From positions 4,404,001 through 4,468,000 of the forward strand of contig CM119371.1 in assembly GCA_051294905.1 (NCBI GenBank): a DNA stretch of 64,000 nucleotides, in the 5' to 3' direction. Within the stretch, counting starts at the first letter, position 1; each line of letters begins with the position of its first letter. Made by a program: the position numbers and the translations under genes. The DNA is from Botryllus schlosseri. Lineage: Eukaryota. Below are positions 1-59,464 of the stretch, piece after piece. The notes under the pieces were generated by a model, which was given only the letters and a program-made list of their open reading frames with translations, was not told the origin of the DNA and ran no database searches.

Positions 1-212
1 GTGCGGTACACCAATCCGCCATAAGGGTCCCCCCGCTTGGAAAAGCTTTAGGTACAGGACGAGAGCGATTCAGATCGAGGAAAAAAATCATTAGAACGGA
101 GTGAAATAGCATAGCAACCAGGCATGTAATACACACATTGAATAACAATACATGTTCAGTACATACCGAAGGGTTATAAACAGTGAGACACAACAGAGCG
201 GTAAAAAAAAAT

Positions 213-28900: not shown

Positions 28901-30639
28901 CACCCTTTGTATACTTCATTAGATATTGAAGCCTATGTTGTTGTGTTAACGCATATGGCTCTACTAAAGAATTGAAAGCCATTTTAAAATCATAAAAATC
29001 ACTGGCGTTTCCTGTAAAGATGGGAGGTTCCGTGAGGGGTAATAAAGAAGGTTGGGGAACTTGGGCATACATAACCTTGGGCTCCGAATTACTGATATTG
29101 TTTTTAGGAGCAAGGAAACAAGCTTCAGCATTGGCTGGTGTCGAAATAAGAGCAGCGGGTTTAGGTCCCCGTTCATATTTTGGTAACTTAGTAGGTTCAC
29201 TACGGCCCTGCAAACAAGGGCTATCAAAATCAATCAGATCTAGCACCGAGTTAACAGTATTTGAACCCAAAGGTTGCGAACTACCTGGAATGGATGGACA
29301 ATTAAACTGAGGAATGAATTCGATGGCAGTTTCCTGCTTGACTACAGGACTCAGTCTAGTACTAAAAATTGATTGTCGGGTTTCTAGGGACTGAGGAACA
29401 AAAGGAATTTGAACGTCGGTGCGATTCATACCTGAAACATTAACAGTAGGAAGCTCAAAACCAAGCACCTTTCTCTCTGCGCGAGTTTCCTCAAGCGCAG
29501 ATGCGATTTCGAATTGGTCCCTCTGATGCCTCATACTGAGTTCATCGATCTCTCGTTGTCTAATGCGTCTCAAGGTTTCAACCTCGGACTTGTTTTCCCG
29601 TTCGAGTTCTTCTGCTTCGAGCTTTTGCTGTCGAGCAATTTCTTCCCGTCTTGATTTAATCTTTTCAAGCATTTCTTCTTCTTCACGATGATGCCGCAAC
29701 ATGAGTTGCTGTTTTTCCAGAATATGACGTTGTGAGGATGAAGCAGATCTGGCCTCCAGAACCGCTTCTTGTTGCATCAATGTCATACCCACATCTGAGG
29801 TAGACATTGTTGAGCCTGAGCCATGTGATTGAGTAACATGACTTTTTGATTTAATACTCGATCGACTGCCAACCTTTGCCTTTGATCTGGTAGTCATCAT
29901 ATGTAGATTGTCTTTGGTTAGCAATGCACTTTTGGCGCTTCTTTTCACATGACGCGAAACCATGCCAGCAGACACACAACTCGAACTTGTTCTAGTCTTT
30001 GTTTTGTTCAAGTTGTTTTTTGGCTGTGCTGCAGCTCCTATCGCGCCATAAGCTTTGGCTTGCGTTGCTAATTGTTGAATCGGGCCTTCCATATTATCTT
30101 CGGATAACACCAGGGCGTCAATTCCACGTTGATTTGATGCTAGTTGATTGGAGACCGCAACATCTTTCAACAGCTCCATTATGAAATATCCTTTGTCGTT
30201 TAGTGCAACGTTTCGTTTGATGCGATGTGATCATTAAAAACTTGTGTAACCGCAGAAATTTCAGGCCTAATCTGGGTACACGACGTAGCACTGTCAGCTG
30301 TCTTCGCTCCGGTTGAAACTTAAACACGCGTCTTCTTGGGTGAAGTACGGTTTTTAATGATCCAAATTCCCAGCGACTATACAACTGACCAAATAATTTA
30401 TAACAATCCAAATTCTTAATACAAACAAATAATACGAATTAAAATAACATGAAAGCCAAATAGAACCCTAAATACGATAATACGCATCCTAAACTAAACG
30501 ATTTGAGTCAAACAATAATATGCGACCAATACCATGCAGTGCGCCACGTGAAGTGATATATTCGAGGCGCCAAAACCATCATTCATGCGTCATAGAAAGA
30601 ATCATTGGTCCATTGCGAAGGTGGAATTCTGCGGCAACA
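25926..30639 (-). mobile_element. BEL/Pao LTR retrotransposon, internally deleted
   Basis: Apparently identical 395-bp LTRs (25926-26320, 30245-30639), TGT..ACA ends, 5-bp TSD GTGTC, PPT GGGGGTGAGGG. Confidence 0.95.
26631..30179 (-). CDS. BEL/Pao gag-protease-partial integrase polyprotein (1182 aa), lacking RT/RNase H and the integrase DDE core
   Basis: Three Cys/His knuckles (CPQCKQTH..C, CFSC...GH..EC, C...C.GKH..LLH), ALLDGAS protease motif, LRVGGR, HHCC, C-terminal W..GR....PG.D..VR.V...RPITKL. Confidence 0.9.
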   Translation of the reverse strand: MELLKDVAVSNQLASNQRGIDALVLSEDNMEGPIQQLATQAKAYGAIGAAAQPKNNLNKTKTRTSSSCVSAGMVSRHVKRSAKSALLTKDNLHMMTTRSKAKVGSRSSIKSKSHVTQSHGSGSTMSTSDVGMTLMQQEAVLEARSASSSQRHILEKQQLMLRHHREEEEMLEKIKSRREEIARQQKLEAEELERENKSEVETLRRIRQREIDELSMRHQRDQFEIASALEETRAERKVLGFELPTVNVSGMNRTDVQIPFVPQSLETRQSIFSTRLSPVVKQETAIEFIPQFNCPSIPGSSQPLGSNTVNSVLDLIDFDSPCLQGRSEPTKLPKYERGPKPAALISTPANAEACFLAPKNNISNSEPKVMYAQVPQPSLLPLTEPPIFTGNASDFYDFKMAFNSLVEPYALTQQHRLQYLMKYTKGVPHVLIKGCLHADSHSCFDKAWKILNENYGQEHQISRCCLESILGGPRFSENDRDGLAMFWAKLVSCRETLMGTNSLHEIDNIMVIDKVEDRLPEGWRSGWRSIVDNIVNVKREKLTMLDLSNYIRKKSRELETKPKINWSLSNERFVNPKGSKTSFATQMESTTASCCPQCKQTHFLNQCNIFRAMNFEQRHNFVQQNKLCFSCLQAGHFSKECYRKKPCSQAKCFGKHTTLLHPPDNNPSQSHKPIQLIKSEQNSESDKTTSSFASSIQKEAGALLPGLPVKVRVGSGGNIFTTKALLDGASRNSFITHSLLERISAKGRDVSVAVKTLNGVGSHKTETLIDNVEVSAYNGNDWVSLSTLVSTEEIPLGKYEMPLQEDIQDFPEFDGIEIPDVDCDVELLIGFDNRSIHRPREVVDGPADFYAVRTLIGWAVACERSEIKGNGKLPVSCNFTKVSTDSVCEMCSDVIDKVKTEKTCLATVVSDVPTPGIEFMDEAIKKHCNWFKLKKVIAWVLRYKDRLLSKVRGTSGGNESLPAGLLTTDEVLRSEREIIKHEQAKFYAAEMHAIANGQNLRPASTLYRLKPFIENGLLRVGGRIMEAPIAYENQHQIVVPRDSRIASAIFEWHHRLSGHSGREHVLGMVRKKYWIVRPQPKLRKIIYDCVICRKRQRQPESQQMSNLPAKRPKWIDGKCNLKIDDIVLIMDDNLPRNAWLLGRVTQLFPGKDDLVRSVRIKTKNSELERPITKLVLIQSSST

Positions 30640-30883
30640 GTGTCTACCTTCTCTTCATTTCCGCTAGTAATTATTTCGTGCGTTTGTCTATCTGTTAGTT
30701 CATCATTCTGGTGTAGGGCGTTCTGAGAGTAGCATGTGTTTCCTGATTAACTTCTGTTTTAACGTTTATATTCTTTGTAGCATAGTCTACACTTTTAGTG
30801 AATAAAAGCCTAGAAAGCCGTATATCTATTGGTGGGTTTTCCTCGCAAGCTCACAACAATTTTATTCACTAAATCTGAAGATC

Positions 30884-31651
30884 ATGGCTGGTTCTCAGGA
30901 AAAGTATATTCGAGTGCCAATACTCGAAATCCTTCCAAGTTCTCCGGATTCCCTAAAGGTCTTCAATCACTGGGAAAAGATGCTCAACAATTTTATCACT
31001 GCAGTTGAGACTTCGAATACGCCACCTCCTAACTCTGGTGAAAACCCTCCCGCACCTGTCATCGATAAGTTGGCGATCCTTACAGGGTATGTGTCTCCCG
31101 ACGTCTATTCATTGTTCGAACAGCTAGATACCTTCACGGCAGCAATGGACCTGCTTAGATCCAGGTATCGAAAGAAAAAGAACGTCATTTATGCAAGGCA
31201 TCTGCTGGCCATTGCGAAACAAGATCCAGGCAAATCTATCACCGAGTTCTCACAGGATTTGCTCATGCTTGCTCGTGATTGTTCGTTCGAGAATGTATCG
31301 GCGGACCAGCACAGACAAGAAGCCGTACGGGATTCACTAATTACTGGTCTACACTCGTCAGCTATTCGTCTGCGCTTACTCGAACATGACGATTTGACGC
31401 TGGAAAAGGCCATTAAAATTGCAGAGTGTCTGGAACAGGCACAGAAGTTTTCTAGTTCCTACGAGCCGCAGAGTCAACCTGTTCTGAATGTCAACAGCGA
31501 TCAATCTGCTATTAGTTCCAATTTATCGGCGTTCAAGAGCGATGTGCCTGCCGCGAATATATTGAAGAAGAAGTGCTTTTTCTGCGGAGAAATTCACGAA
31601 TGAACACGGAAATCCTGTCCCGCGAAAGATGTTTCATGCTTTCATTGTGGC
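30884..31651 (+). pseudogene. gag: Gypsy #2 gag (in-frame TGA at 31601-31603 inside the zinc-knuckle region)
   Basis: ARH.L...KQ..G.S and RD..I.GL motifs; CFFCG..H..*..CPA...CFHCG..GHYAKVC; same frame as pol. Confidence 0.9.
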
Positions 31652-33150
31652 GTGCGGGGACACTATGCGAAAGTGTGCAGATTGCGTATCGGAGGAGAAC
31701 CTGCTGCCTCGTTGAACTCGTTAGTCTCTGGTTCGGCACTTGCTGGAATACCCGACTCTCTTCGGTATTCTTGCCTCGACGTCTCCGTTGCGCAATATAA
31801 CGTGAAGGCTTTGATAGATTCCGGTGCTTATGAATGCTATATCAGTGAATCCCTATCGAAATTCCTCGGTCTTCGCCCGTTTGGTCGCAAGTACTCCATC
31901 ACACTTGCAGAGAAGAACTCCGTAACAACTGTTCTCGGGTGCATTGAAGCTTCACTCGAGATACCGGGGTGTAATTACGGCAAAGTCAAATTCAGAGTCG
32001 TTAAAGATCTCATTGCTGATGTGATCCTGGGATTGGAATTCATGAAGCAGCATGGCAAAGTTGTATTTGAATTTGGCGGACCATCGAAGGATCTCATCAT
32101 TTCGAATGGTTTACATTGCGCCGTAGCAGCTGCGAGAGTATCCGCACCTCCTCAAATATTCAAATTCGTCGACCCTGAAGTGCGACCCGTAGCTGTCAAA
32201 TCAAGAAATTATAGTTCAGATGACCGGAAATTCATTGCGAGTGAGTTGTCGAAACTGCTGCGTGACGGTGTAGTAGAACGTTCCGTGTCTCCCTGGCGAG
32301 CCCAGGTCTTGGTAACGAAAGATTTTCGGCACAAGAAGAGGTTAGTAATCGATTACTCACAGACCATCAATAGGTTTACTCCTCTGGGTGCATACCCTTT
32401 GCCCAAAATAGAGAACATCGTGAACGACGTGGCGAAAGGAATGGTATATAGCACCATTGATTTAAAATCTGCTTACCACCAAGTACCGCTATCTGTATCC
32501 GATAGGCCATATACTGCATTTGAAGCTGGTGGATCGTTGTATCAATTTTGTCGTCTCCCTTTCGGGATAACCAATGGTGTAGCTGCGTTTCAGCGGTTCA
32601 TTGATAAATTCATTGCTGAGCACAAACTAAATGGTACTGTTGCCTACCTCGATAACGTCACGATTTATGGGGAAAACCAGAAAGACCATGATGAAAGGCT
32701 TCAAGCCTTCATGTCTGCTGCGACAAATTGGGGATTGACTCTCAATAAAGATAAATGTCTGTTGTCCGTGTCAAAACTCTCATTACTTGGACATTTAATA
32801 TCACATAACACAATTCAGCCAGATCCTGATCATCTTAAACCATTACTCGACATGCCAGTTCCTAACGACAATCGCAGTTTGAAACGTTTCATGGGGATGA
32901 TGGCTTACTATTCAAAGTGGATCCCCTCTTTCTCGGGGAAAATCAAACCATTATGTCAAAATTGCGAATTCCCGTTGATTGGCATTCAGCTGGAAGCCAT
33001 TAATACTCTGAAAACGGACTTATTACGGGCCTGTCTAAGTTGTATTTATGACGATGAGCCTTTCCAAGTCGAATGTGATGCTTCAGACCACGACATCGGG
33101 GCCATTCTGAGCCAACGGGGCAGACCAGTCGCCTTTATGTCCCGAACGTT
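31652..33150 (+). pseudogene. pol: Gypsy #2 pol, 5' part (protease, RT, start of RNase H)
   Basis: LIDSGA, RLVIDYS, IDLKSAYHQ, LPFG, YLDN and ECDASD motifs. Confidence 0.95.
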
Positions 33151-36100
33151 AGTAGTTATGTAGATCGGTCGTGAGGTGGCAGGGGTTCTTATGGGCCCGC
33201 TGGTGACTCGCCGCGAAACTCGTGTTGGTGATTCGCCCTTTTCGACCCCCCCTTCCGCTGGTGATTCGCCATGTGTTCTTATGGGTGCGGCCGTGATTCG
33301 CCTTTTTTGCTATAGGCTGCGTCGGTGACTCGCCGCGAAAACTCGTGTTGGTGACTCGCCTTTTTTACTATAGGCGGTGGCGGTGATTCGCCTGTCATGT
33401 ATTCTTACGCGGTCTCTGGTGACTCGCCATGTGTTCTTATGGGTGCGGTCGTGATTCGCCCTTTCAGGTATAGCTCGTGGCGGTGACTCGCCGTGAAAAC
33501 TCGTGGTCGTGACTCGCCTTTTTTGCTATAGGCGGTGGCGGTGATTCGCCTGTCATGTATTCTTCAGATCGGGTTATTCGCACCTTGTATACCGCTGTTT
33601 CGCACCTACAGAATAGTCTGCTGTTCACAGTCGTGACTTCACCGCGATAGCACAATATTCGCAGGTAATATTTCCGCAATAAGTTTGTCACAGAACCGTT
33701 GCACAATATCCGCGTTCACAAACTAACACTCCAAAAAGGTGTGAAATATTGGTAAAATCCCGCGATCGCTCACAAGATAATACCTAAGACATAACCATCG
33801 CTTGCGACTCGCTGTTACATACATGCCGATCGTTGACAATGTAATATTTTGGTAATTGGTTTGCCACAGAGCCGGCGTAGACGGTGATTCAAATATCAAC
33901 AATAGCCGCGTTCACAAACCAACACTTCAAAAACGTGTGAAATAGGTTACAAATCCCACGATCGCTCACAAGATAACACCAAAGACATCACCATTTCTCG
34001 CGTCTTGTCATTACATACATCCCAATCGCTACAGTGTAATGTGTCGATGGTTGTTACTATCAAGTAATAAGTAATGAATAACAGTACCAGCGCAGACCGT
34101 GATTCGAAAACCAACAATTTGACACTTGCCCGCGATCGCTATATGTTTCATGCCTCTCGAATAGTGGGTGACTTTAGTTGCGTGATAAGATCCATGAAAA
34201 TATTCAATCAATGTGTTAGTTTGTCAACTTGAAATGTAACTCACTACACAGATCAAGTTGAATCGTATTTGAATGTATTGACTCGACCCAACTCAAATCC
34301 TTTGACAAATCCTATTAACGCAATCTGTTGAATCGAACGTAACCTGAATATTACTGACACCAACATTCACCCACATCGGATCATTCACACATTCCACGCC
34401 GCTGTTTTAACAGTTATAGAATCAATACCAACTATCTCTAACCCGATAATATTCAATCATTTTGGTAATTTACCAACTTTAAATCCATTCGCGGATGTAC
34501 TAAAGGTAAATCCAGATAATCCAAAATGAAATATTTGGACTTTGACATAGTCTGAATTGAAATAGATTGACAAACATGACTTACAACTTTCAACCCAGTC
34601 ATATTTAGAGATTATACACACATTGATTCGAAACAAGTAATGAAACATTACAACTCTATTCGCGATCCGGCTTTTCAATTGCCAAAGCGACATTTTAACA
34701 TCTTACCATACTCAAAAGAATTATTCACAACATTAACAAGTGTTAAATATCTAGTTTTCACTTACTTGATTATATCACTACAACTCACAAACTTGAATTA
34801 ATTCATCCTGGTTGTATTCATATGACCGATAATTTTTTATTCAACTGTAAAGGTCGTTACTATTCTGTAAAACAAAGTATTTACTAATCGGTCCATATAC
34901 GACTTGACATAAACCTATTACATTTTGAATATACGATATTTGAATGTCTGAACAATAACTGAGAAATAATTATCACAAGTGAATCCATATACGACAGCGT
35001 AAAAGATATTGGAATGTCAGCAACTCTTCACGGTCGTAGTTACTACCACATTAACTAATTTACCCGACCAACTCGTCATGATCATTCCTGAAATCAACAC
35101 AAACATGCCCCTGTCTTCAGTTACCACAAAACAGCATCAAGTTTTAAATCCACTTGTAGCTGATGGATTATTTGATTGCATCGATAGAGAATATTATTGA
35201 ACTCGTCGGTATTGTTACTACAACAAATTTTCGCTTACACCGACTGCGAAAGTTAATATCGAATGGTAAGTCTTGACCGCATATTTGTTGAACACAGACA
35301 TGACAAAGAACATTACCGAGATTTTATAAACTAGTCATATTACTTTTCACATCTATCAATATCAGAATACAAGTAATCAAACTTTTTGTTAAATGTAACA
35401 TAGCACTTTTGGAATCGGATTCGTTATAGTCATACAAATTGTATTAAATCCAACATCAAAACAAAAGGAATTTTTTTAGTTTATTGAAATCAAATCATTC
35501 GTCTTCGACTTGTGCTTTTCTAGATTGCACGCAACAATTCGTTACGAATGAGCTGTAACCAAAGTTAAGAATTCTTTGTGTCCACAGATATAGAAGATGA
35601 ATATAGCTAACACAATCACGAATCGACGTTTCAGAGTATTTCACGGATGTAATAAACTTGTTAGTGTGGCCTATCTAAAAGTATGCATGCGTTCGATTTC
35701 CATACCGACTGTTGCGATGTTTAGGATTCGCTTACAATGACCAAGAGTGAGGATTTAACATCAATGTCGTTACTGGAGGTATTCACAACAGAGAATCGAA
35801 ACATTACACAGTGTGAAAATATATCTTTGATATCAAAGCACTATCCCAAGTACACGATTAATACTCAACTCCGTTCACACTTTCTATAGAACGTGCTAAA
35901 TGTAAAATATCACGAGGTTGCACTCTAAGACTTTGATCATTACAAAAGTAAATTGAATATGTTTGCTCGACGCATTCAATTCAACTAGAAATGTCTAGTG
36001 CACAACAATCGTAATATTAAGGAAGTACTTGCTACACTGTAATTCACTAAACGTGTTTTGCATTGTTGTTCATTTGTAGCATTGATTGAAATTGTTTTTT

Positions 36101-39100
36101 GAACCCTCAAATAATAATTCCCGACATGAAACCAAACCGCTGAAAGTCGTTACCAACACAAAGAAACACTTTGTACGATGTTTGCCAAATGTACCCTATG
36201 GTTAGGTGTACTAGAATTATTTGTGTAACACATACACCGACAATGTAATCGAAAATTTTTCCGTTGTCATTCGCTAAAGTAAATGTCATCACAATACTCT
36301 GTCACTAAAGATCTTACTTGTATCTGATTGAATCACCGATAATTAACTCGCTAAATCAAACCATAAGGAAATTTCACTCACTCATCAGATATGAAACAGC
36401 GTCGCTTAATCGGTGTAGATCGTTTTTCTAAATGCAAATCATACCTGACCAACAGAAAACAATTTTCACTCACCTTGTAATGAAACCAAGTGTAGTGGAC
36501 CTTCGTTCAATATTTTGTTTGTGTCAAATACTTTGCAATAAACACACTGGAGTGGTCGAGCTTTACATCAGCAGACTGTAATCTGTAAATCAAGCTTACA
36601 TCCGACTTGTAACTGTATCGTTTACCTAACCGAGTTGTATGCACAGTTTGATATTTTTTGTTATTTGGTAATTGCTGAATATACTACTTCGAAATACTCC
36701 CTTGAACGTAATTTCCATCATCGTAATAATCGAAGTACATTTGTGTCGAATTCGTAACAGCCGACTATGACATGATAAATTTTTGACAAGTTATGCTTGG
36801 AAGATTGGTTGTATATCACGAAAAATAATTACCGCTCATATTCATACTGTTATCCATTGTTCGGTATTTTTAAACGAGTAAAATTTATTACTTGAGTTAC
36901 TCCGCTTAATGCAAATGTAAACACAACCGTCTTTCAACATCGCAAAGACATCGATACAAAGTATACAATCAAACGCAACAAGTTTTACTTTTGTAGGTTG
37001 TGTATGGTTATCCTGCATAACTCATTTCTTACCAAAGCCATATGAAATATATTCATGTTACACGAAAATATTCACTCATGCTACAAACCTGTACAATGAT
37101 TGGTGGTGCTTTCAAACTGTTTCGATACCTCAAGAACTTTATTGTCTGAATGGTTGTTCATGTATCACAATAATCAAGTAATTCAACACAGAACTAGTAT
37201 TAACAGAAACACCAAAGTTGTTTACACAAAAGTTTGTATGTGTACAGTATACGAATACCATGTGTAAGTCCAGCACAATTGTGGACGAGTTTAGTTAACA
37301 CAATTTACGACACCGAGGTCGCGTCATCTTTCGTAAGACAACAAACCAAGGCTTCAGGATATGTCCATGTCATAGCAATGAATCAGCTACTCCAACAACA
37401 GAGTGCATATGTTTTCTAGTTACGGTGCTTACATCTTACACACAAATCAATCTACTTTGCTAACGAAAAGTGGTGAGTCATCATATGGTTATCCTCACTA
37501 GTAAAACATACTATCATACAAAATGGTCGTTATAGTTTGCACACCAACGGTACATCGTACAAGTAACAATTCTCGAGAATCCAGTTATTCAAAAAACGTG
37601 AAAGTATTTCTACACCAAGTCGTTATGTTGACGAAAGCGTATATTGTAATATCATGATCAATTTGCATTCGTTGGTCACAAACTGTCACTACTCCAAATA
37701 ATTCTTTTTCACTCAAACACAAACGCACACTTGTCACCATTCGTTTTCATCAAGTACGAGTTCAAGAAACTTACTACGACATGAATTTTTATTTTTATGT
37801 TGTGTAAATAGGTAATAATTAATTCAAGTAACACTATATCAACATCATCGAGTTGTGCTAATAGATTTACATGTGGTCTTGTGGTTTTCATCGGGACATA
37901 CAGCACGAACTATCTGTAGACTCCTCTCTGTTGTACAGCTACTCGGTAATCGAAATGCATTAACATGTAAACAACGATCTTGTTTCGTCACACCAAAAAA
38001 TATGTTCACTGTCGCGATACTCCGCACAAGACGTGCATAGCCTTTGCACACTCGTAATAGTATACCAACGTCAAGCGATAACGTTTAACAAGACCAACGA
38101 CACTGACTCCACGACGTTTACCTATGTAAAATTACCACTTTCACTTGCCAGTCCATCGTTTACCTGACTAAACATATTATTTTCCTTTGGAGATCTGACG
38201 TTTACCCAGAGTAAGAAACCATTTTCACTTGTAAATATATTTTTTCCTCGGCTAACAAACCTTTTTCACTCGGAAATCTATTTTTTCTCTGGTTAACAAA
38301 CCTTTTTCGCTTGGAAATATATTTTTTCTCTGGTTAACAAACCTTTTTCACTTGGAAATATATATTTTTCCCCGGGTAACAAACCTTTTTCCCTGAGCAA
38401 CAAACCATTTTAACTTGGTGGTCCGTCGTTTAGTCGAGTAAAAATATCATTTTCCTTTGGAGATCCGGCGTTTACCCAGTGTAACTATACATTTTCGCTT
38501 GGAAAAATACTTTTACCTAGAGTAACTAATCATTTTCTCCTGGGTAACAATCCCTTTCCGTCTGGAAACTATCATTTAACTGAGTACCAATACCGTTTTC
38601 ACTTGGAAATACATTTTTTCCCTGGGTAACAATACCATTTTCGTTTTGAAAACTGACAACCACACCGGCCAATTTGATGTTTTTGTATATTGTTACAACG
38701 AAGAGTGACGGAAATATACACAGACTACCGGTTTTAGAGTATACCCCATCGGTCGTATCACATCAATATCATCGGTTAACCACATACAATATACTCTTGT
38801 ACACCGAAATGCACGCTTTGGAAAATTGGACAATAGGCTGCGATAGTTCTGCGATGTCCGGGTTCGTGCTTTGGATTTTCCAGAGTCAAAATGTCTGAAT
38901 AAAACACCTCCTCGACGACGGTTGGTATGTGGATAACGGTGTTCGGAAAACGGTTGGATTTATGTCACCCATCACGATAACAACTCCAGGTCGAGTTTTC
39001 CTCCCGCATGTTTACTATATTGTGTCTTTATTGGTCAATGTATGTCTCGACATTCAGTTTGAAATCGGAAACCCTGATAAAGTATGTAACCGGATCCGGA

Positions 39101-39375
39101 TATCAACTCTGAATCGATAAACCAATGAACAATATTCAAAGTAAACATGTTACACCCTGTGTTTCCACGAAAAAATACCATCCAGACATACGTCGCGCTT
39201 GTTTGCCCGCACCAGTATACGCGCGCGCAAATGGAGGTGTGTGACATTGCATGCAATGTGTTGGTATACAAACATCGATCCACAGACATTATCATAGCCG
39301 GTAGTTTTGATGTAGATCGAATGTCACCCGATAACAATGTCATACCAATAAGCCACATTGCAATGACTCTGAGTC
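33151..39375 (+). repeat. Left arm of the 6225-bp inverted repeat
   Basis: Mirrored ORF track; paired coordinates sum to 79677 throughout; about six substitutions seen by eye. Confidence 0.98.
36200..38050 (+). pseudogene. Heavily decayed protein-primed family B DNA polymerase (pPolB); mirror copy ~41630-43480 on the minus strand
   Basis: Manual translation gives motif ghosts in the expected order: VVDLRSIFC..L..HTGV; SEWL......IQH...TVYEYH..QHNC; ASGYVHV; YGYPH; HVVLWFSSGHTAR...LSVVQLLGNR...SCFVT. Confidence 0.65.
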
Positions 39376-39400
39376 AATCTGAAGCATGACATACGGACAC
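38780..39400 (+). pseudogene. Possible decayed Polinton rve integrase
   Basis: QYTLVH..ARF, GNPDKV...LNR and YKHRST resemble YTLHKP..RF, GRKP.KLQTD..EFLNR and YHRSI. Confidence 0.4.
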
Positions 39401-39578
39401 ACAAACATAGAAACCGTAACATGGGTATTCGCACGACGGTGAAAGTGAACTATACAGCATATACCAATAGAGTGTTCACAGTCAAATATGCGAACCGTGC
39501 ACAATCATATACCCAGGTTTTTGCTGGATATGTACGAAACCAATAAATCGATACATTTCTTTTCTCTGGACATCAATA

Positions 39579-40250
39579 ATACAATCGCCATTCAAATGCA
39601 TCGCTCGAATGTGAGGTTCGTCGGGTGTAAAATCCATGTCCAATAAAACCAAAGTGTGCCTTCCGTGTTTTATTATTTCCACCGACACTACTTGTCTGTG
39701 TCGTAACACTATGGTGCGGGGAGTTGAAAACGGTGGATTGTGAAACGGATTGACATGACCAACAGAATCGACGTCAATAGTCTTGTGGTCAAAATGTTAC
39801 CGATATGACGAGCGCAACCTCGATCTTTTATGGCGATGACCGTTTCGAAATGTCGCTGGACGAACTGGACCCATACGAAGGTGTGTTTTATGATTGCGTG
39901 TGAAATCACGACGCAGTGTTCTATTGCGGTGTACGATTGCAGTCTTCATTCCACAGAAACACACCTTATTGGATCACAGTATCAGTCCGAGATTTTCAGA
40001 ATCACTGTTCACGATATTTATCTGGAGTCGTTATGTGGGAGTAGCGACGTCCATGCATCGTGACTGAAAGACTGATCGCAATCATTTCGAGCACCCATAC
40101 TTCGATAGTTCACATTGGTCAAATGCTGCAGTCTCAGCAGAAAACTTCGGTGTCGACAACACGACGGATATCGACCGATGTATCCAATTGGTCTGGGTGA
40201 TCTGTCCGGAGATAGGGTCATGACTATCTTGTAATGTTACAACGCGATAA
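39579..40250 (+). pseudogene. Possible decayed Polinton packaging (A32-like) ATPase in the spacer
   Basis: IQSPFKCIARM*GSSGVKS resembles HPFT..I.GPSGSGKT; RNLDLYGDD resembles Walker B RNL.ILDD. Confidence 0.45.
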
Positions 40251-40301
40251 AACCATCGAGTAAATCAGTGAACGGTATCGAAATATCGATGTAATAGCGC
40301 G

Positions 40302-43300
40302 GACTCAGAGTCATTGCAATGTGGCTTATTGGTATGACATTGTTATCGGGTGACATTCGATCTACATCAAAACTACCGGCTATGATAATGTCTGTGGATC
40401 GATGTTTGTATACCAACACATTGCATGCAATGTCACACACCTCCATTTGCGCGCGCGTATACTGGTGCGGGCAAACAAGCGCGACGTATGTCTGGATGGT
40501 ATTTTTTCGTGGAAACACAGGGTGTAACATGTTTACTTTGAATATTGTTCATTGGTTTATCGATTCAGAGTTGATATCCGGATCCGGTTACATACTTTAT
40601 CAGGGTTTCCGATTTCAAACTGAATGTCGAGACATACATTGACCAATAAAGACACAATATAGTAAACATGCGGGAGGAAAACTCGACCTGGAGTTGTTAT
40701 CGTGATGGGTGACATAAATCCAACCGTTTTCCGAACACCGTTATCCACATACCAACCGTCGTCGAGGAGGTGTTTTATTCAGACATTTTGACTCTGGAAA
40801 ATCCAAAGCACGAACCCGGACATCGCAGAACTATCGCAGCCTATTGTCCAATTTTCCAAAGCGTGCATTTCAGTGTACAAGAGTATATTGTATGTGGTTA
40901 ACCGATGATATTGATGTGATACGACCGATGGGGTATACTCTAAAACCGGTAGTCTGTGTATATTTCCGTCACTCTTCGTTGTAACAATATACAAAAATAT
41001 CAAATTGGCCGGTGTGGTTGTCAGTTTTCAAAACGAAAATGGTATTGTTACCCAGGGAAAAAATGTATTTCCAAGTGAAAACGGTATTGGTACTCAGTTA
41101 AATGATAGTTTCCAGACGGAAAGGGATTGTTACCCAGGAGAAAATGATTAGTTACTCTAGGTAAAAGTATTTTTCCAAGCGAAAATGTATAGTTACACTG
41201 GGTAAACGCCGGATCTCCAAAGGAAAATGATATTTTTACTCGACTAAACGACGGACCACCAAGTTAAAATGGTTTGTTGCTCAGGGAAAAAGGTTTGTTA
41301 CCCGGGGAAAAATATATATTTCCAAGTGAAAAAGGTTTGTTAACCAGAGAAAAAATATATTTCCAAGCGAAAAAGGTTTGTTAACCAGAGAAAAAATAGA
41401 TTTCCGAGTGAAAAAGGTTTGTTAGCCGAGGAAAAAATATATTTACAAGTGAAAATGGTTTCTTACTCTGGGTAAACGTCAGATCTCCAAAGGAAAATAA
41501 TATGTTTAGTCAGGTAAACGATGGACTGGCAAGTGAAAGTGGTAATTTTACATAGGTAAACGTCGTGGAGTCAGTGTCGTTGGTCTTGTTAAACGTTATC
41601 GCTTGACGTTGGTATACTATTACGAGTGTGCAAAGGCTATGCACGTCTTGTGCGGAGTATCGCGACAGTGAACATATTTTTTGGTGTGACGAAACAAGAT
41701 CGTTGTTTACATGTTAATGCATTTCGATTACCGAGTAGCTGTACAACAGAGAGGAGTCTACAGATAGTTCGTGCTGTATGTCCCGATGAAAACCACAAGA
41801 CCACATGTAAATCTATTAGCACAACTCGATGATGTTGATATAGTGTTACTTGAATTAATTATTACCTATTTACACAACATAAAAATAAAAATTCATGTCG
41901 TAGTAAGTTTCTTGAACTCGTACTTGATGAAAACGAATGGTGACAAGTGTGCGTTTGTGTTTGAGTGAAAAAGAATTATTTGGAGTAGTGACAGTTTGTG
42001 ACCAACGAATGCAAATTGATCATGATATTACAATATACGCTTTCGTCAACATAACGACTTGGTGTAGAAATACTTTCACGTTTTTTGAATAACTGGATTC
42101 TCGAGAATTGTTACTTGTACGATGTACCGTTGGTGTGCAAACTATAACGACCATTTTGTATGATAGTATGTTTTACTAGTGAGGATAACCATATGATGAC
42201 TCACCACTTTTCGTTAGCAAAGTAGATTGATTTGTGTGTAAGATGTAAGCACCGTAACTAGAAAACATATGCACTCTGTTGTTGGAGTAGCTGATTCATT
42301 GCTATGACATGGACATATCCTGAAGCCTTGGTTTGTTGTCTTACGAAAGATGACGCGACCTCGGTGTCGTAAATTGTGTTAACTAAACTCGTCCACAATT
42401 GTGCTGGACTTACACATGGTATTCGTATACTGTACACATACAAACTTTTGTGTAAACAACTTTGGTGTTTCTGTTAATACTAGTTCTGTGTTGAATTACT
42501 TGATTATTGTGATACATGAACAACCATTCAGACAATAAAGTTCTTGAGGTATCGAAACAGTTTGAAAGCACCACCAATCATTGTACAGGTTTGTAGCATG
42601 AGTGAATATTTTCGTGTAACATGAATATATTTCATATGGCTTTGGTAAGAAATGAGTTATGCAGGATAACCATACACAACCTACAAAAGTAAAACTTGTT
42701 GCGTTTGATTGTATACTTTGTATCGATGTCTTTGCGATGTTGAAAGACGGTTGTGTTTACATTTGCATTAAGCGGAGTAACTCAAGTAATAAATTTTACT
42801 CGTTTAAAAATACCGAACAATGGATAACAGTATGAATATGAGCGGTAATTATTTTTCGTGATATACAACCAATCTTCCAAGCATAACTTGTCAAAAATTT
42901 ATCATGTCATAGTCGGCTGTTACGAATTCGACACAAATGTACTTCGATTATTACGATGATGGAAATTACGTTCAAGGGAGTATTTCGAAGTAGTATATTC
43001 AGCAATTACCAAATAACAAAAAATATCAAACTGTGCATACAACTCGGTTAGGTAAACGATACAGTTACAAGTCGGATGTAAGCTTGATTTACAGATTACA
43101 GTCTGCTGATGTAAAGCTCGACCACTCCAGTGTGTTTATTGCAAAGTATTTGACACAAACAAAATATTGAACGAAGGTCCACTACACTTGGTTTCATTAC
43201 AAGGTGAGTGAAAATTGTTTTCTGTTGGTCAGGTATGATTTGCATTTAGAAAAACGATCTACACCGATTAAGCGACGCTGTTTCATATCTGATGAGTGAG

Positions 43301-46300
43301 TGAAATTTCCTTATGGTTTGATTTAGCGAGTTAATTATCGGTGATTCAATCAGATACAAGTAAGATCTTTAGTGACAGAGTATTGTGATGACATTTACTT
43401 TAGCGAATGACAACGGAAAAATTTTCGATTACATTGTCGGTGTATGTGTTACACAAATAATTCTAGTACACCTAACCATAGGGTACATTTGGCAAACATC
43501 GTACAAAGTGTTTCTTTGTGTTGGTAACGACTTTCAGCGGTTTGGTTTCATGTCGGGAATTATTATTTGAGGGTTCAAAAAACAATTTCAATCAATGCTA
43601 CAAATGAACAACAATGCAAAACACGTTTAGTGAATTACAGTGTAGCAAGTACTTCCTTAATATTACGATTGTTGTGCACTAGACATTTCTAGTTGAATTG
43701 AATGCGTCGAGCAAACATATTCAATTTACTTTTGTAATGATCAAAGTCTTAGAGTGCAACCTCGTGATATTTTACATTTAGCACGTTCTATAGAAAGTGT
43801 GAACGGAGTTGAGTATTAATCGTGTACTTGGGATAGTGCTTTGATATCAAAGATATACTTTCACACTGTGTAATGTTTCGATTCTCTGTTGTGAATACCT
43901 CCAGTAACGACATTGATGTTAAATCCTCACTCTTGGTCATTGTAAGCGAATCCTAAACATCGCAACAGTCGGTATGGAAATCGAACGCATGCATACTTTT
44001 AGATAGGCCACACTAACAAGTTTATTACATCCGTGAAATACTCTGAAACGTCGATTCGTGATTGTGTTAGCTATATTCATCTTCTATATCTGTGGACACA
44101 AAGAATTCTTAACTTTGGTTACAGCTCATTCGTAACGAATTGTTGCGTGCAATCTAGAAAAGCACAAGTCGAAGACGAATGATTTGATTTCAATAAACTA
44201 AAAAAATTCCTTTTGTTTTGATGTTGGATTTAATACAATTTGTATGACTATAACGAATCCGATTCCAAAAGTGCTATGTTACATTTAACAAAAAGTTTGA
44301 TTACTTGTATTCTGATATTGATAGATGTGAAAAGTAATATGACTAGTTTATAAAATCTCGGTAATGTTCTTTGTCATGTCTGTGTTCAACAAATATGCGG
44401 TCAAGACTTACCATTCGATATTAACTTTCGCAGTCGGTGTAAGCGAAAATTTGTTGTAGTAACAATACCGACGAGTTCAATAATATTCTCTATCGATGCA
44501 ATCAAATAATCCATCAGCTACAAGTGGATTTAAAACTTGATGCTGTTTTGTGGTAACTGAAGACAGGGGCATGTTTGTGTTGATTTCAGGAATGATCATG
44601 ACGAGTTGGTCGGGTAAATTAGTTAATGTGGTAGTAACTACGACCGTGAAGAGTTGCTGACATTCCAATATCTTTTACGCTGTCGTATATGGATTCACTT
44701 GTGATAATTATTTCTCAGTTATTGTTCAGACATTCAAATATCGTATATTCAAAATGTAATAGGTTTATGTCAAGTCGTATATGGACCGATTAGTAAATAC
44801 TTTGTTTTACAGAATAGTAACGACCTTTACAGTTGAATAAAAAATTATCGGTCATATGAATACAACCAGGATGAATTAATTCAAGTTTGTGAGTTGTAGT
44901 GATATAATCAAGTAAGAGAAAACTAGATATTTAACACTTGTTAATGTTGTGAATAATTCTTTTGAGTATGGTAAGATGTTAAAATGTCGCTTTGGCAATT
45001 GAAAAGCCGGATCGCGAATAGAGTTGTAATGTTTCATTACTTGTTTCGAATCAATGTGTGTATAATCTCTAAATATGACTGGGTTGAAAGTTGTTAGTCA
45101 TGTTTGTCAATCTATTTCAATTCAGACTATGTCAAAGTCCAAATATTTCATTTTGGATTATCTGGATTTACCTTTAGTACATCCGCGAATGGATTTAAAG
45201 TTGGTAAATTACCAAAATGATTGAATATTATCGGGTTAGAGATAGTTGGTATTGATTCTATAACTGTTAAAACAGCGGCGTGGAATGTGTGAATGATCCG
45301 ATGTGGGTGAATGTTGGTGTCAGTAATATTCAGGTTACGTTCGATTCAACAGATTGCGTTAATAGGATTTGTCAAAGGATTTGAGTTGGGTCGAGTCAAT
45401 ACATTCAAATACGATTCAACTTGATCTGTGTAGTGAGTTACATTTCAAGTTGACAAACTAACACATTGATTGAATATTTTCATGGATCTTATCACGCAAC
45501 TAAAGTCACCCACTATTCGAGAGGCATGAAACATATAGCGATCGCGGGCAAGTGTCAAATTGTTGGTTTTCGAATCACGGTCTGCGCTGGTACTGTTATT
45601 CATTACTTATTACTTGATAGTAACAACCATCGACACATTACACTGTAGCGATTGGGATGTATGTAATGACAAGACGCGAGAAATGGTGATGTCTTTGGTG
45701 TTATCTTGTGAGCGATCGTGGGATTTGTAACCTATTTCACACGTTTTTGAAGTGTTGGTTTGTGAACGCGGCTATTGTTGATATTTGAATCACCGTCTAC
45801 GCCGGCTCTGTGGCAAACCAATTACCAAAATATTACATTGTCAACGATCGGCATGTATGTAACAGCGAGTCGCAAGCGATGGTTATGTCTTAGGTATTAT
45901 CTTGTGAGCGATCGCGGGATTTTACCAATATTTCACACCTTTTTGGAGTGTTAGTTTGTGAACGCGGATATTGTGCAACGGTTCTGTGACAAACTTATTG
46001 CGGAAATATTACCTGCGAATATTGTGCTATCGCGGTGAAGTCACGACTGTGAACAGCAGACTATTCTGTAGGGGCGAAACAGCGGTATACAAGGTGCGAA
46101 TAACCCGATCTGAAGAATACATGACAGGCGAATCACCGCCACCGCCTATAGCAAAAAAGGCGAGTCACGACCACGAGTTTTCACGGCGAGTCACCGCCAC
46201 GAGCTATACCTGAAAGGGCGAATCACGACCGCACCCATAAGAACACATGGCGAGTCACCAGAGACCGCGTAAGAATACATGACAGGCGAATCACCGCCAC

Positions 46301-46526
46301 CGCCTATAGTAAAAAAGGCGAGTCACCAACACGAGTTTTCGCGGCGAGTCACCGACGCAGCCTATAGCAAAAAAGGCGAATCACGGCCGCACCCATAAGA
46401 ACACATGGCGAATCACCAGCGGAAGGGGGGGTCGAAAAGGGCGAATCACCAACACGAGTTTCGCGGCGAGTCACCAGCGGGCCCATAAGAACCCCTGCCA
46501 CCTCACGACCGATCTACATAACTACT
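40302..46526 (-). repeat. Right arm of the 6225-bp inverted repeat
   Basis: Reverse complement of 33151-39375. Confidence 0.98.
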
Positions 46527-47955
46527 AACGTTGTCTAAAAGCGAGATGAAATATCCGGCTGTTGAGAAAGAGGCGTTGGCAATTATAGAATCGGTCAGAA
46601 AATGGGGTTATCTGTTGATCAGAAACGAGTTCCAATTGATCACAGACCAGAAGGCGCTTTCATTTATTTTCCGAAAAAGTCACCCGAGCAAAATCAAGAA
46701 CAGCAAGTTATCTATATGGAAATTAGAACTAAGCTCGTTGAAATATGAAATTATTCATCGTCCTGGTAAGGAACACGTGGGCGCTGATGCACTTTCTCGT
46801 TTGTGTTCTATTTCGTCGTCGTCTGGAATGTCGTTGCAACAGGTTCATGAAGCCCTGAGTCACCCCGGAGTCCGTCGACTACATCACTTTGTTCGAGCGA
46901 AAAATCTACCATTCTCCATGGAGGACGTCAAAAAGATCTGTTCTAATTGTTCGGTTTGCGCTGAATTTAAACCGAGGTTTTTCAAATCCAACCAAGTGAA
47001 TCATCTCGTCAAAGCCACTAGACCCTGGGAACGTATAAGCATTGATTTTAAAGGTCCTGTTTCCGGACCAAAGCGGTTTATACTCGTTATAATCGATGAA
47101 TATAGCAGATTTCCATTCGCTTATGCATGTCGTGACATGACCTCTGCTACTGTAATCAATTGCCTGTCTTCATTGTTTTCTCTTGTTGGACTCCCAGAAT
47201 ACGTCCACAGTGATCGGGGAACTTCATTCCTATCGAAAGACGTAACGGCCTTCCTGACGCGTAAAGGTGTTGCGACAAGCAAATCAACACCCTATCATCC
47301 AACGGGTAATGCTCAGTGTGAACGTCTGAACCAAACCCTCTGGAAGGCAATTAAACTCCGCTTAGCTACTCAAAGGTTGCCTGAACGGTTGTGGGAGCAA
47401 GTCCTACCCGATGCCTTACATTCGATAAGGTCTCTACTCTGCACGTCTACTAACTGTTGCCCTCATGACCGATTTTTCAGCTTCGAGCGCAGATCCATGC
47501 TGGGGGTGTCGATACCTGATTGGCTACTAAACGGTGGTACTGTGCTGCTACGGAACTTTGTTCGCAACAAGAGTGATCCCGAAGTGGTTAGAGTAGAGCT
47601 TCTAGATGCTAACCCGAAATATGCATTAATTCGTCACAGGAACGGGACGGAATCAACTGTATCAGTAAAGGATCTAGCCCCGTGCCCGCGTGAAGAGAAC
47701 GATAATGGGCTTGATTTCCGTTCCATCGAGCCTGCAGTCGACTTGCGTTCTGCCGAAATCAACAACGACCAGAATGGTTTATTATCTCAAAACTCCTCGG
47801 ATCATCATTCAAACTCTCCTGTCGATACTCAAAACGACTCCCACGATACCTCAATCGGTCGAAACGATTCCGATGCAACTGTTGATGAGCCACCGATCCG
47901 AAGGTCATCAAGAATCAGACGAGCGCCCGATTGGTATGGTGACCGCACAACATGA
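46527..47955 (+). pseudogene. pol: Gypsy #2 pol, 3' part (RNase H, integrase)
   Basis: EKEALAI, TDQK, ADALSR, HHCC, IDFKGP, HSDRG and ERLN motifs; joins in frame (FMSRT-LSKSE) once the insertion is removed. Confidence 0.95.
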
Positions 47956-48462
47956 CTTCAGTACAGTGGCCCGATCATTTTAGGCTGGGGAGATTGTGGT
48001 GTTATATTTATCCGTTAGGTGTCTACCTTCTCTTCATTTCCGCTAGTAATTATTTCGTGCGTTTGTCTATCTGTTAGTTCATCATTCTGGTGTAGGGCGT
48101 TCTGAGAGTAGCATGTGTTTCCTGATTAACTTCTGTTTTAACGTTTATATTCTTTGTAGCATAGTCTACACTTTTAGTGAATAAAAGCCTAGAAAGCCGT
48201 ATATCTATTGGTGGGTTTTCCTCGCAAGGTCACAACATTCGGCATTTGCGATGTACTCAACCCTAATGAATTGATATATTATTAAATTTGGGGTACCGGC
48301 ACCGGGCTTATCGAGCGCCTTGAATCTTACATACTGAGAAGGCGTTGTCGAGAAATTACATCTGAGAATCGACTCCGAATGTGGCATAACCGTCATGCAC
48401 TTGTATACGACCTGTATATATGAATAAGATGCCTGCATTGCATGCGTTGCATTATCGGTAAT

Positions 48463-50475
48463 ATATATATATATATATCGGCTTTCAATTAAATAAAAGG
48501 GCAAAAGAAAACAGGAAACAAATGAACATCAAGATAATGAGTTTTGGGCCCTTATGAAGCGCCTCCATCGTGGGCGGTCGTGGGCGTCTTCGAGCGATAG
48601 CCCGCGTTGCGCTAGCTCGGTCTCTATTGTTGAGCGCCATGTGGTTCTATTCCAGCCACCTCTGCGCCATGGCTCCGTCGGAATGTGGTTGATGATGACG
48701 GCGGCTGGTTGATCGTCTTGATGCCGCACTAGATGACCGATTAAGCGTAAGCGTCGTTCAGCAGCCAGCAAACGGCATGGGACTGTTTTTGTGAGTTTGC
48801 GCAGAGCATTGGTGGATATGTGCTCCGGGTGGTGGATGCCGAGTGCGTAGCGGAGGAGTGCATCGTAGTTGGCGTTGAGTGTCTTAGCCAGCTTTTCTGT
48901 CAGCGTGAGTGCATCTATTCCGTAGAGAAGAACCTGCTCGACAGTGGCACGGAAGATGCGGGTCTTGGGCTGGGTTGAGGCACTTGAATGGAAGAGGCTA
49001 TGTAGCCGTCTTGCCGCGCCCCAGGCCTTTGCTCGCCTCGCCTTGAGCGCTTTTCCAGAGTCAGCGACGTCAATACCGAGGTATACAAAACTCGTTACAT
49101 ACTTGAGATCGATATCTCCCAGTTGAATTGGTGTCGCGTTCACCGGTAGAGCTGGTATGGCCAGAACCTCAGTCTTCTTAGCGTTGATCTGGAGGCCAAC
49201 AAGAGCGGCGGCGGCCTCTAGCTGGTTAATGAGACGCTGTGCCGATACGGCGTTCGGGGCAAGCAGGGCTAGGTCGTCTGCGTAGGCAAGAATACCTACG
49301 TGGATTGCCTCGCGAGTCGTACGCGTGCGCGTTCCTTGCCGTGGCCGCCATTCAAAGAAGTTCGTAGTATCCGGGAAGGCCGTTCGTAGCACGAAGTCAA
49401 GGATGACCACAAACAAGAATGGTGCCAGGGTGTCACCTTGAAGCACACCAGCCGAAGTGTTGAAATCTCCGCTTGGGCCGTCATCTGTTCGGACTCGCGC
49501 TCGTGTGTCAGTGTAGAGGGCCATAATGGCGTACGTTATCACCTCAGGAATTCCATAGAATCTGAGGATCTCCGCCATGGCTGGGCGCGAGACCGAGTCG
49601 AAGGCTTTCGCGAAATCAACGAAGACGGCCACAACATTCTTTTTGTGTGAGCGGCAGGTGTCAATGATTGTGCGCAGTGCCAGGATGTGCTCTGTTGTAC
49701 CGCGGGATGGTCGAAATCCATTCTGAGCATTCAAGAGCTTGGTAGAGAGCTGCTCACGTATGCGAAGGAGCAGTACTCGGTCGAACAGCTTGGCAGCGGT
49801 CTGCATCAGGGAGATGCCTCTGTAGTTCGCTGGGTCACTCGCAGCGCCTTTCTTGTAGATAGGGACGATTTCGCTCTCGAGCCACTCGGGGGGCACCGGG
49901 CCGCCTTCGAGGACGCCATTCATGACGTCGAGGAGCACAGGTGCAACGCCCGAGGTGTAAGCAGCCGTTGGGATGCCGTCCGTGCCGGTGGCCTTGAATT
50001 GTGGTACTCCACGCATGGCTGTCTTGAGCTCACCTAGCGTGATCAGGGTTGTATTGATCGCTAGAGGATTTGCTGCTAGTGAAGGCGGTGCAACGAGCAC
50101 ATCGATGTCTGGTGCAGGTGTAGATAACAGGGTCTCGAAGTGTGCTGCGAGGTCTTCCGTACAGGCCTTCACGCGGGTCCTCTTGAAGCCAACTAATTCA
50201 CCGATGGCTTTCCAGGCTGCTCTTGATCGGCCTGCTTCAAACTCATTTTCCACGGAAAGGGCAATAGCTTCGACTCGTTCCTTGCGAGCTGCGTCATAAA
50301 CGTTTGTTAAGTACAGAGCTGCCTCGTTGGCATCGCTATGTGCGTCCAGTGTTCCAGAGGTGTACGCAGCACGTCTGAGAGTCTTGAGGTTGCGGCGCGC
50401 ACTGAGCACTGTCGGGTCGGATTCCCAGGCTAATCTTGGCCGTGGCTTGCTACGGGCCTCACCGATAAATACCAA
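48463..50475 (-). mobile_element. 5'-truncated RTE-clade LINE with an open RT frame (48529-~50460)
   Basis: NYRGISL, QNGFR, FVDFAKAFDSV, GVLQGDTLAPFLF, YADD and F.YLG motifs; (TA)n tail; 12-bp TSD ATTATCGGTAAT (48451-48462, 50476-50487). Confidence 0.93.
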
Positions 50476-51962
50476 ATTATCGGTAATGTCGATTCTCGGT
50501 GGTGTCATTCTCGGTAATGGTTTTCTCGGTATTGACCGGACAGGGTCCGGCGGGCCACGTTATCAACTAAGACGGGAAACTGTCCGCGGGCCGGACAAAA
50601 TCCTGTCGCGGGCCGTACGTTGCCCGCCCCTGGTTTAGATGATGACAATTATTCTAGAAGGTTCAAATCGGTGATGTATTATCACTACTATGAACAACAA
50701 TACAAACACATTTTTGTAGATTTCAGTGTAGCGTGTATTTCGATTTCTTTAATATTATGGGTTTTGTGTGTTGGATAAGTCTAATTGAATCGGAGGTGTC
50801 TAGCAAAAATATACCAATTAGTTTTTTTTTTAATGATCAAAGTGTTAGAGTGTGAACAGAGTTTAACACGGTTTAAATGATGGCTCGAATTCTAAAGTGA
50901 TATTTTCGTACTGTGTAATGTGCGTGTGTTTCAATTAGCTGTCGCGGATTCTGACAATAAAGCATTGTACCGGTGGTTGATCAGCAAACGAAATTGTTGT
51001 TTCATCTTTAGTCTTGGTTACTGGAAACGCCCCAATGCGTAGACGCCGTAGAGTGATTTATACCAACATGGAATAATTTTCCAATCAAGAACATTTCAGA
51101 CACGCTAATCTAGTTTTACAACTCCATATGTTAATAACAATGATCCTGAAAATTTTGTTGATATCGCAATAACCAACACCGGTCCAATTACGTCATAATT
51201 TAATAACCAAGTCATGATCGAATATTACAAACGCTCGTATGTCAAACCAATGTGAAGGATGTTTACAACATGATAACTTTCATGTAACACCAGCGTTCGA
51301 TTGTGAGAAATGAATTCTCAACTACGTTGGTCAGACAATCAAAGCTCGTATACCAAAAGCATAATATGTTATTCTCAAGTCGCACACCAAGTAATAATTA
51401 GTTTTTCTTACAGAATATACCGCATAGTAATGACTTTGTCTTATATAATAGACCGCGTCGTAATTTTTTCATCTTACAGAATAGTAACAACTTTTAAAGT
51501 TGAATAAGGAGGGGGGGCACAAACACGAGTTTCGTGGCGGGTCACCAGCAGACATGGGGTAATTGTGATTAGTAATCGTAATCGACTGCGACGATCACAG
51601 CATTTCCAAGTAATCCTAATCGCAATCGATTACATTCGAAAAAAATCTGAAGTAATCGTAATCGATTATTTCACATATCTAATCGATTTCTTGGTGAAAG
51701 AACGATTACTTTTCATTTGAAGAATGACTGAAACTGAACAAGGAAGAGTGCCATGTTATACCATGTTATTGCTAGGAGATGTCGGCTTTTTAAGCCCCGC
51801 TGCTCATTATCACGTCACAAGCATTAGCTTTGCTCGTCGATGATTACGTAACGAATTATACACACATAGTAAATAGATATTCGATGTATATGTAGTCGTG
51901 TGATTCTAAGAGTCGTCGGCATGCCGTATATCAGGTTATTAATATACTCCAGACATCTAACA

Positions 51963-59460: not shown

Positions 59461-59464
59461 TACA

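Follow-up and report, generated by a model that had tools for sequence, protein, structure and literature searches.

A young, gene-less 13.4-kb palindrome with Maverick/Polinton-type ends in a Botryllus schlosseri retrotransposon

The window analysed here is a 64,000-nt stretch of the Botryllus schlosseri genome (GenBank assembly GCA_051294905.1, contig CM119371.1, positions 4,404,001 to 4,468,000 of the forward strand), and all coordinates count from its first nucleotide. At 33151–46526 it carries a palindromic element of 13,376 bp that has no recognisable gene, whose ends and flanking duplication are of the type described for Mavericks/Polintons, and which interrupts a Ty3/Gypsy retrotransposon. 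With modest confidence, and on evidence drawn from sequence, we favour the reading that it is a non-autonomous, gene-less dependant of the Maverick/Polinton machinery in a fold-back, or 'snap-back', form; both the helper and the way in which the palindrome arose are matters that we infer.

To define the structure, the window was searched for repeats, and a single dominant inverted pair was returned, 33145–39375 and 40302–46532, whose members lie 926 nt apart. When the arms were compared base by base, they differed at 6 of 6231 positions (33604/46073, 34582/45095, 34760/44917, 35819/43858, 38679/40998 and 38805/40872), with no indels, and their complementarity broke off abruptly on both the inner and the outer sides. 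The window has no N. Once the outermost AACGTT of each side is excluded, the element proper spans 33151–46526, with both ends reading AGTAGTTATGTAGATCGG..., the left starting with AGTAGT and the right finishing with ACTACT; repeats make up 93% of it. These comparisons bore out the original prediction, made from the letters, of 6225-nt arms with about six substitutions and no indels, a 926-nt spacer, AGTAGT termini and AACGTT on both sides. That both arms end at an identical internal base and have no indels between them is the pattern left by one inverted duplication and not by two insertions. The parts of the element are as follows.

33145–33150, no strand: left copy of the target-site duplication, AACGTT (present once at the empty-site joint described below)
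33151–39375, plus strand: left arm, 6225 nt, non-coding, outer end starting AGTAGT, no Pfam or Rfam match
39365–39375, plus strand: mini-palindrome at the inner end of the arm, GACTC-T-GAGTC, with its mirror GACTC-A-GAGTC at 40302–40312
39376–40301, no strand: spacer (loop), unique, 926 nt, GC 43–45%, without a recognisable gene
40302–46526, minus strand: right arm, matching the left arm in reverse complement at all but the 6 substituted positions, terminating in ACTACT
46527–46532, no strand: right copy of the duplication, AACGTT

The mini-palindrome at the turn may have made 5–11 nt of self-complementarity available for fold-back pairing.

The insertion site was examined in the flanks of the palindrome, which form a single Ty3/Gypsy pol reading frame whose RNase H is split by the insert. 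The open reading frame (ORF) at 31604–33163 contains the protease, the reverse transcriptase and the first part of RNase H, and that at 46522–47955 contains the remainder of RNase H and the integrase. The host element, with its long terminal repeats (LTRs), is:

25897–48237, plus strand: Ty3/Gypsy element, LTRs at 25897–25925 plus 30645–30858, and at 47995–48237, duplication TTCGG

The LTRs are 243 nt long, not 219 nt as first read, and the element is larger than first thought; they have 1 mismatch, in agreement with the claim that the LTRs of the split Gypsy differ at about one site, and the 5-bp duplication TTCGG is perfect. To look for the site without the insert, Logan contigs of four public runs (X1, X17, X5 and X18), which are short, were aligned to 32400–47300. 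A joint 33144->46527, which skips 13,382 nt and leaves one AACGTT, was found in three of the four runs: in X1 on 2 contigs (shorter side 27 nt), in X17 on 1 contig (shorter side 110 nt) and in X5, which has another species label, on 1 contig of 931 nt (shorter side 106 nt). It was absent among the X18 contigs. The contigs with the joint come from Gypsy copies or alleles that lack the insert, and since they carry one AACGTT, the insert is an addition with target duplication. Accordingly, given the precise empty-site joint and the single difference between the LTRs, the insertion is real and young. A BEL/Pao element (25926–30639; DUF1759, integrase zinc domain, DUF5641) sits 29 nt inside the Gypsy 5' LTR; its 395-nt LTRs are identical, its duplication is GTGTC, and it is no older than the palindrome.

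No gene was detected in the palindrome. The largest ORF in arm plus spacer was at most 114 aa, none of the 72 ORFs of at least 45 aa reached the Pfam cut-off (the best was SUEL_Lectin, with 17.5 bits against a cut-off of 31.4), and the six read-through frames of arm and spacer, written with X at stops, matched 0 Pfam families at E ≤ 0.1, as expected from the description of the element as coding-dead. A comparison of 33000–40400 with Rfam gave 0 matches at E ≤ 0.1. The spacer has a 104-aa ORF with one database relative of 93 aa (84% identity, no Pfam domain) and none among longer proteins, and with this single short relative the possibility that the spacer is a gene relic was dropped; the inner arm also holds a 112-aa ORF. 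Nested transposons were considered as the source of the long arms, and no convincing internal inverted pair was found. The arm interior has a GC content of 30–38%, compared with 42–49% in the Gypsy flanks, and it is rich in short repeats.

33202–33550, plus strand, mirrored at 46127–46475: GGTGAYTCGCC array, 12 direct 11-nt copies spaced ~25–36 nt apart
38134–38642, plus strand, mirrored at 41035–41543: 21/41-nt minisatellite, from the repeat search of the arm

GGTGAYTCGCC occurs 25 times in the window, where 0.97 occurrences would be expected, with 24 in the two arms and one in an older copy of the element described below. A 158-nt tandem unit spans the region of this array, a candidate array of binding sites, and 158-nt and 196-nt duplications lie farther inward in the arm.

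The ends of the element were compared with those of Mavericks. In vertebrates, according to the accessible part of PMC8097293, the commonest end motif is 5'-(AGT)2//(ACT)2-3' with perfect 6-bp duplications, 134 intact elements have terminal inverted repeats (TIRs) that measure 46–1447 bp (mean 402), intact elements are 12.7–24.6 kb in size, and the end repeats are expected to permit 'jumping back' during protein-primed replication such as that of adenoviruses. End repeats of the Maverick kind, (AGT)2//(ACT)2 or (AG)3//(CT)3, were found in the young copy as AGTAGT...ACTACT and in the older copy as GGTAGT...ACTACT, and 6-bp duplications were found as AACGTT in the former and ACCGTA/ACGGTA, identical at 5 of 6 positions, in the latter. 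The ends and duplication are thus of Polinton type, as had been proposed, and match the published motif. The original prediction also had the arms as far longer than usual Polinton TIRs, and at 6225 nt those of the young copy do lie beyond the range published for vertebrates and the ~2 kb of butterfly polintons (bioRxiv 10.1101/2025.02.07.637071, available in part), whereas the inverted repeats of the older copy, at ~85 nt, fall within the Maverick range. The abstract of PMC5499653 states that 'All Polintons, by definition' carry a protein-primed B-family DNA polymerase and a retrovirus-like integrase. Because both are absent from the palindromic element (0 Pfam families in the six frames of arm and spacer), it is not a Polinton in this strict sense. 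It is classed here as, at most, a non-autonomous dependant working in the manner of a Polinton; genes for a capsid, a packaging ATPase and a protease are absent as well. Both duplications are centred on CG, a hint, from two sites only, of a weakly palindromic target preference.

The original prediction had proposed a search for further copies with such ends and a different 6-bp duplication, and one was present in the window itself. It was located by searching the window with the pattern of the element end, which matched GGTAGTATATGTGATCGG at 21166 on the plus strand and AGTAGTATATATGATCGC at 61294 on the minus strand. The young palindrome is thus nested in the Gypsy, and the Gypsy is nested in an older member of the palindrome's own family, which is laid out as follows (reverse and forward refer to the direction of the young arm).

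21160–21165, no strand: left flanking duplication, ACCGTA
21166–61294, plus strand: older member, 40.1 kb including nested inserts, left end GGTAGTATATGTGATCGG, right end ...ATATATACTACT
21166–22574, forward: young-arm 33151–34686, adjoining the left end
22575–22898: 325-nt filler with no match in the segment comparison
22899–23858, reverse: young-arm 38651–37288
23859–50689: retroelement fill
50690–51507, reverse: young-arm 36073–34837
51517–51549, reverse: young-arm 33230–33199
61238–61294, reverse: terminal 57 nt of the young arm
61295–61300, no strand: right flanking duplication, ACGGTA

By arithmetic, duplications would match at 5 or more of 6 positions by chance in 19 of 4096 cases. The first and last positions of the flanks agree as direct, not inverted, repeats, and this speaks for a duplication of 6 bp rather than 4 bp; an alternative right junction with the flank AACCGT gave 0 matches. 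With a hAT-like insert set aside, the two ends of the older copy align over ~85 nt, with 77% identity over 106 aligned positions. Identity between the older copy and the young arm was 71–91% (72–86% for blocks of at least 100 nt), and the filler matched the arm weakly (score 46, compared with a shuffle maximum of 36). The older copy has no recognisable gene. Every matched arm segment is single in it, and its inverted repeats are limited to the outermost ~85 nt. Since the older copy holds each arm segment once and has short repeats, the giant palindrome is probably a derived state of the family.

The older copy has itself been a target for other elements. About 1.2 kb of its arm (young-arm 37288–36073) is missing where the retroelements sit. 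Around the Gypsy, 23859–25896 and 48238–50689 are retroelement sequence, with RVT_1 ORFs at 24089–25204 (plus strand) and 48529–50559 (minus strand) and a short inverted match between 25572–25633 and 48298–48239. A hAT-like element of 9.7 kb (51549–61237, ends CAGACATGGGGT...) is inserted ~50 nt within the right end of the older copy, with a perfect 8-bp duplication GTCACCAG at 51541–51548 and 61238–61245. Its subterminal parts are rich in TAATCG-type short repeats, and its interior, with zf-RVT at 58334–59110 and RNase_H at 59802–60353, probably holds a further nested insert. The positions at which similarity between arm and older copy breaks off (34674–34686 and 37285–37288) coincide with loose ends of X1 contigs at 34674 and 37285, where the contigs continue into other sequence, which suggests that the family may be made up of recombining modules.

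Far from standing alone, the palindrome is a member of a very abundant family, and its spacer, unique in the window, is repeated in the runs too. In X1, 144,097 contigs aligned at 92% identity or more; by identity class there were 50,874 at 99% or above, 58,055 at 95–99% and 35,168 at 90–95%. Summed contig depth, which is not a copy number and is read here only as indicating very many copies, was 63,000–291,000 in X1 for bins wholly in the element (33394–46315), compared with 190–344 in the Gypsy flanks, and 142–3,186 in X5, compared with ~11.5 in the flanks; the depth of the spacer in the runs equals that of the arms. Between 23 and 77% of sampled words of 38400–41300 were present in runs under four species labels and in several metagenome runs from seawater or other marine sources. 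In a search for further copies or a helper, scans of viral and metagenome contig collections with a subterminal 30-mer pattern, of the metagenome contigs with a conserved 24-mer and of the viral contigs with a terminal 18-mer each gave 0 matches. Since many X1 contigs of at least 99% identity cover arms and spacer, the data suggest several near-identical copies of the same subfamily.

The two arms differ from each other at 0.1%, far less than they differ from the rest of the family, and both carry a private variant, 35668 G>C in the left arm and, at the mirrored position in the right, 44009 C>G. Of the depth units in X1, 63,103 of 63,130 at 35668 and 61,152 of 61,152 at 44009 were unlike the window. 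Either the second arm was recently copied from the first, or conversion keeps the arms alike. Two further joints, 38080->41622 (X17, side 25 nt) and 34127->46393, were considered as fold-back or deletion forms and left unused, each being represented by one contig with a side of 20–25 nt.

If the palindrome is a dependant of Maverick/Polinton machinery in snap-back form, its origin might be pictured as follows. An autonomous Maverick/Polinton of the same genome would supply polymerase and integrase in trans, the AGT repeats at the ends would serve 'jumping-back' initiation by the protein-primed B-family polymerase, and the retrovirus-type integrase would produce the 6-bp duplication. One end and ~7.1 kb would be copied first; the growing strand would then turn back at 40301/40302, using the 5–11 nt of self-complementary sequence, and copy itself out to the end, giving two identical functional ends and a 926-nt loop. 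The 12-fold GGTGAYTCGCC array by each end would be a candidate set of binding sites for replication or integration proteins. The label first given to this process was 'copy-back'; 'snap-back' fits better, with arms that cover nearly the whole molecule (usage as in the accessible part of PMC13506859). Of the proposal that the element is a non-autonomous parasite of a Polinton, then, the ends and duplication, the gene-less state and the youth stood, while homology to a Polinton protein and a helper were not found, the latter within the window.

Several observations count against this interpretation. Pfam searches gave no homology to any Polinton protein (pPolB, integrase, ATPase, protease, capsid), and no helper lies in the window, where the domains recovered by scanning belong to retroelements or to a NACHT gene fragment; in the helper scan, 98 of the 126 ORFs of at least 75 aa outside the palindrome were compared and only RVT_1 and RNase_H were matched, the other 28 having been covered earlier or overlapping the BEL and Gypsy bodies. 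The assignment to Polintons draws on a 6-nt end motif, the length of the duplication and two copies, and the (AGT)2//(ACT)2 motif was described for vertebrates. AACGTT is itself palindromic, and from the young copy alone the duplication is formally 6, 4, 2 or 0 bp; the flanks of the older copy and the end motif described in the literature favour 6 bp. It is cut-and-paste and foldback transposons that typically show dense subterminal motif arrays and reach very high copy numbers, and reported Maverick/Polinton families are low-copy (<10 in Anolis). No contig of the four runs crosses the whole palindrome. Lastly, the older copy is also readable as a palindrome that has lost two blocks, which we rate less likely because both deletions must end within 150 nt of one arm coordinate (34686, 34837).

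A stronger version of the snap-back reading can be put forward only tentatively, and we doubt it more than we credit it. It holds that the element descends from a snap-back 'defective-interfering' polintovirus genome that escaped into the chromosome and is now an abundant, gene-less hyper-parasite of Mavericks, whose second arm is remade in each round of protein-primed replication. Remaking the second arm from the first in each round would explain the private variants common to both arms.

Among the alternatives, the one that survives best, while still unlikely, is a non-autonomous foldback-type cut-and-paste DDE transposon with 6-bp duplications, whose arms would be homogenised by hairpin-templated repair or conversion and whose AGTAGT would be a coincidence. 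Some hAT lineages and IS3EU make 6-bp duplications, which counts for this explanation. The long, internally repetitive arms, with 12 direct 11-nt motifs per end and minisatellites, the lack of any gene in the palindrome and the very high abundance would all be expected of such an element, and long repetitive TIRs exist in the cut-and-paste elements Galileo and Foldback (PMC3573991, available in part). Coincidence is strained, however, by the occurrence of (AGT)2//(ACT)2 ends on two independent copies (GGTAGT at the left end of the older one), since AGTAGT has a chance of 1/4096 per end, and the six-frame Pfam search of arm and spacer found no transposase remnant. The palindrome family also differs from the hAT-like element of the window, which shows CAG ends and the 8-bp duplication to be expected of it. 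The Ginger groups, cut-and-paste relatives of the integrase, also differ: Ginger1 and Ginger2 have 4-bp duplications (CCGG/CCGT for Ginger1), TGTNR ends and TIRs of 40–270 nt (PMC2836005), whereas the palindrome has AGTAGT ends and the flanks of its older relative favour 6 bp over 4 bp.

We consider it improbable that the Maverick/Polinton ends are real and the palindrome was made by a host process, such as fold-back break repair, template switching at a fork or conversion advancing inward from short inverted repeats, in a donor copy that later multiplied or in place once inserted. Symmetric arm boundaries and a short self-complementary turn would be left by any fold-back priming, and members with short repeats exist, as in the older copy; fold-back priming at the mini-palindrome could equally be the work of a cellular or a viral polymerase, and the two are not separable by these data. 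Against this, a break with fold-back in place normally leaves a broken or dicentric chromosome and not two intact flanks, and the abundance of X1 contigs of at least 99% identity over arms and spacer suggests that several near-identical copies of the subfamily exist. That the palindrome was created in assembly, through a chimeric fold-back read or a wrongly joined repeat, is conceivable given the abundance of the family and the short contigs, none of which crosses the structure, but it is very hard to credit: at the two outer junctions a single Gypsy reading frame is restored, with a precise duplication, contigs give independent evidence of the empty site, 6 differences separate the arms, no N occurs in the window, and a chimeric read would give neither a 926-nt unique loop nor a second genuine flank.

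To our knowledge, Maverick/Polinton replication has never been directly observed, and gene content and end motifs are the basis on which protein priming, jumping back and integration have been modelled. If the reading of the palindrome as a Maverick dependant is true, a gene-less, abundant and recently inserted element with only Maverick ends would mean that the ends alone are sufficient in cis, and that the Maverick machinery acts in trans and was recently active in this lineage. If it is a snap-back parasite, the insertion would directly record that Mavericks are still replicating and integrating in the germ line, and the family would be a natural reporter of a still unobserved life cycle. 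The palindromic form predicts that its single strands would snap back to form a hairpin of 6.2 kb, and a transcript through it would fold into very long double-stranded RNA. Such elements would also be a source of long inverted repeats within other transposons. A gene-less palindromic Maverick derivative was not found in the literature searched, outside of which lay most subscription journals and Repbase, where the family may already have an entry; in the same literature gene-less Maverick dependants were scarcely mentioned, and 'non-autonomous polinton' was used only for Tlr1 of Tetrahymena.

The rest of the window is filled with transposons, apart from a 489-aa open frame at 13407–14876 (minus strand) that has a NACHT domain and a NOD2 winged-helix domain; it is an innate-immunity gene of the NLR type, or a fragment of one, and its nearest Atlas clusters are from Chordata and Cnidaria. 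Further dispersed or tandem repeats of 85–94% identity, unrelated to the palindrome, lie at 7629–7941/19890–20178, 11523–11652/20512–20641, 57388–58058 and 62159–63345.

Foldback of Drosophila and Galileo of the P superfamily make 7–9-bp duplications and move by cut and paste. The palindrome shares with them long, internally repetitive inverted arms, often without genes, and arms that are more alike within one copy than copies are among themselves (PMC3573991, in the part available); in contrast to them, it has Maverick-type ends, a 6-bp duplication and no transposase remnant. Tlr1, at times called a non-autonomous polinton, is likewise Polinton-related, without the standard pair of polymerase and integrase and with long inverted ends, but it has numerous genes and is classified today as a family of polinton-like viruses, whereas the palindrome has none (PMC5499653, available in part). 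Compared with vertebrate Mavericks as described in the accessible part of PMC8097293, the palindrome has the same (AGT)2//(ACT)2 ends, 6-bp duplications and TIRs, and its 13.4 kb fall inside their size range; it differs in having no pPolB, integrase, ATPase, protease or capsid gene, in the length of its TIRs and in belonging to an abundant and not a small family. In butterfly polintons the TIR has also grown inward by duplication of one end, to ~2 kb that include the hexon and adenain genes (bioRxiv 10.1101/2025.02.07.637071, in part), which shows that repeats extend inward in coding elements too; those polintons keep their genes and a large unique core, in contrast to the non-coding palindrome with its 93% of repeats. 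The palindrome itself carries one end twice, in opposite orientations.

Among protein-primed replicons, a precedent reportedly exists in adenovirus defective genomes with long inverted repeats. Defective viral genomes of the snap-back and copy-back kinds, as defined in PMC13506859, are described there mainly for RNA viruses and as free genomes, whereas the palindrome is chromosomal and comes from an old, abundant family. In structure it agrees with that definition, with one end duplicated as a reverse complement around a turn point and coding capacity lost, and the dependence of such genomes on a helper is a likeness to the palindrome insofar as it, too, would draw on one.

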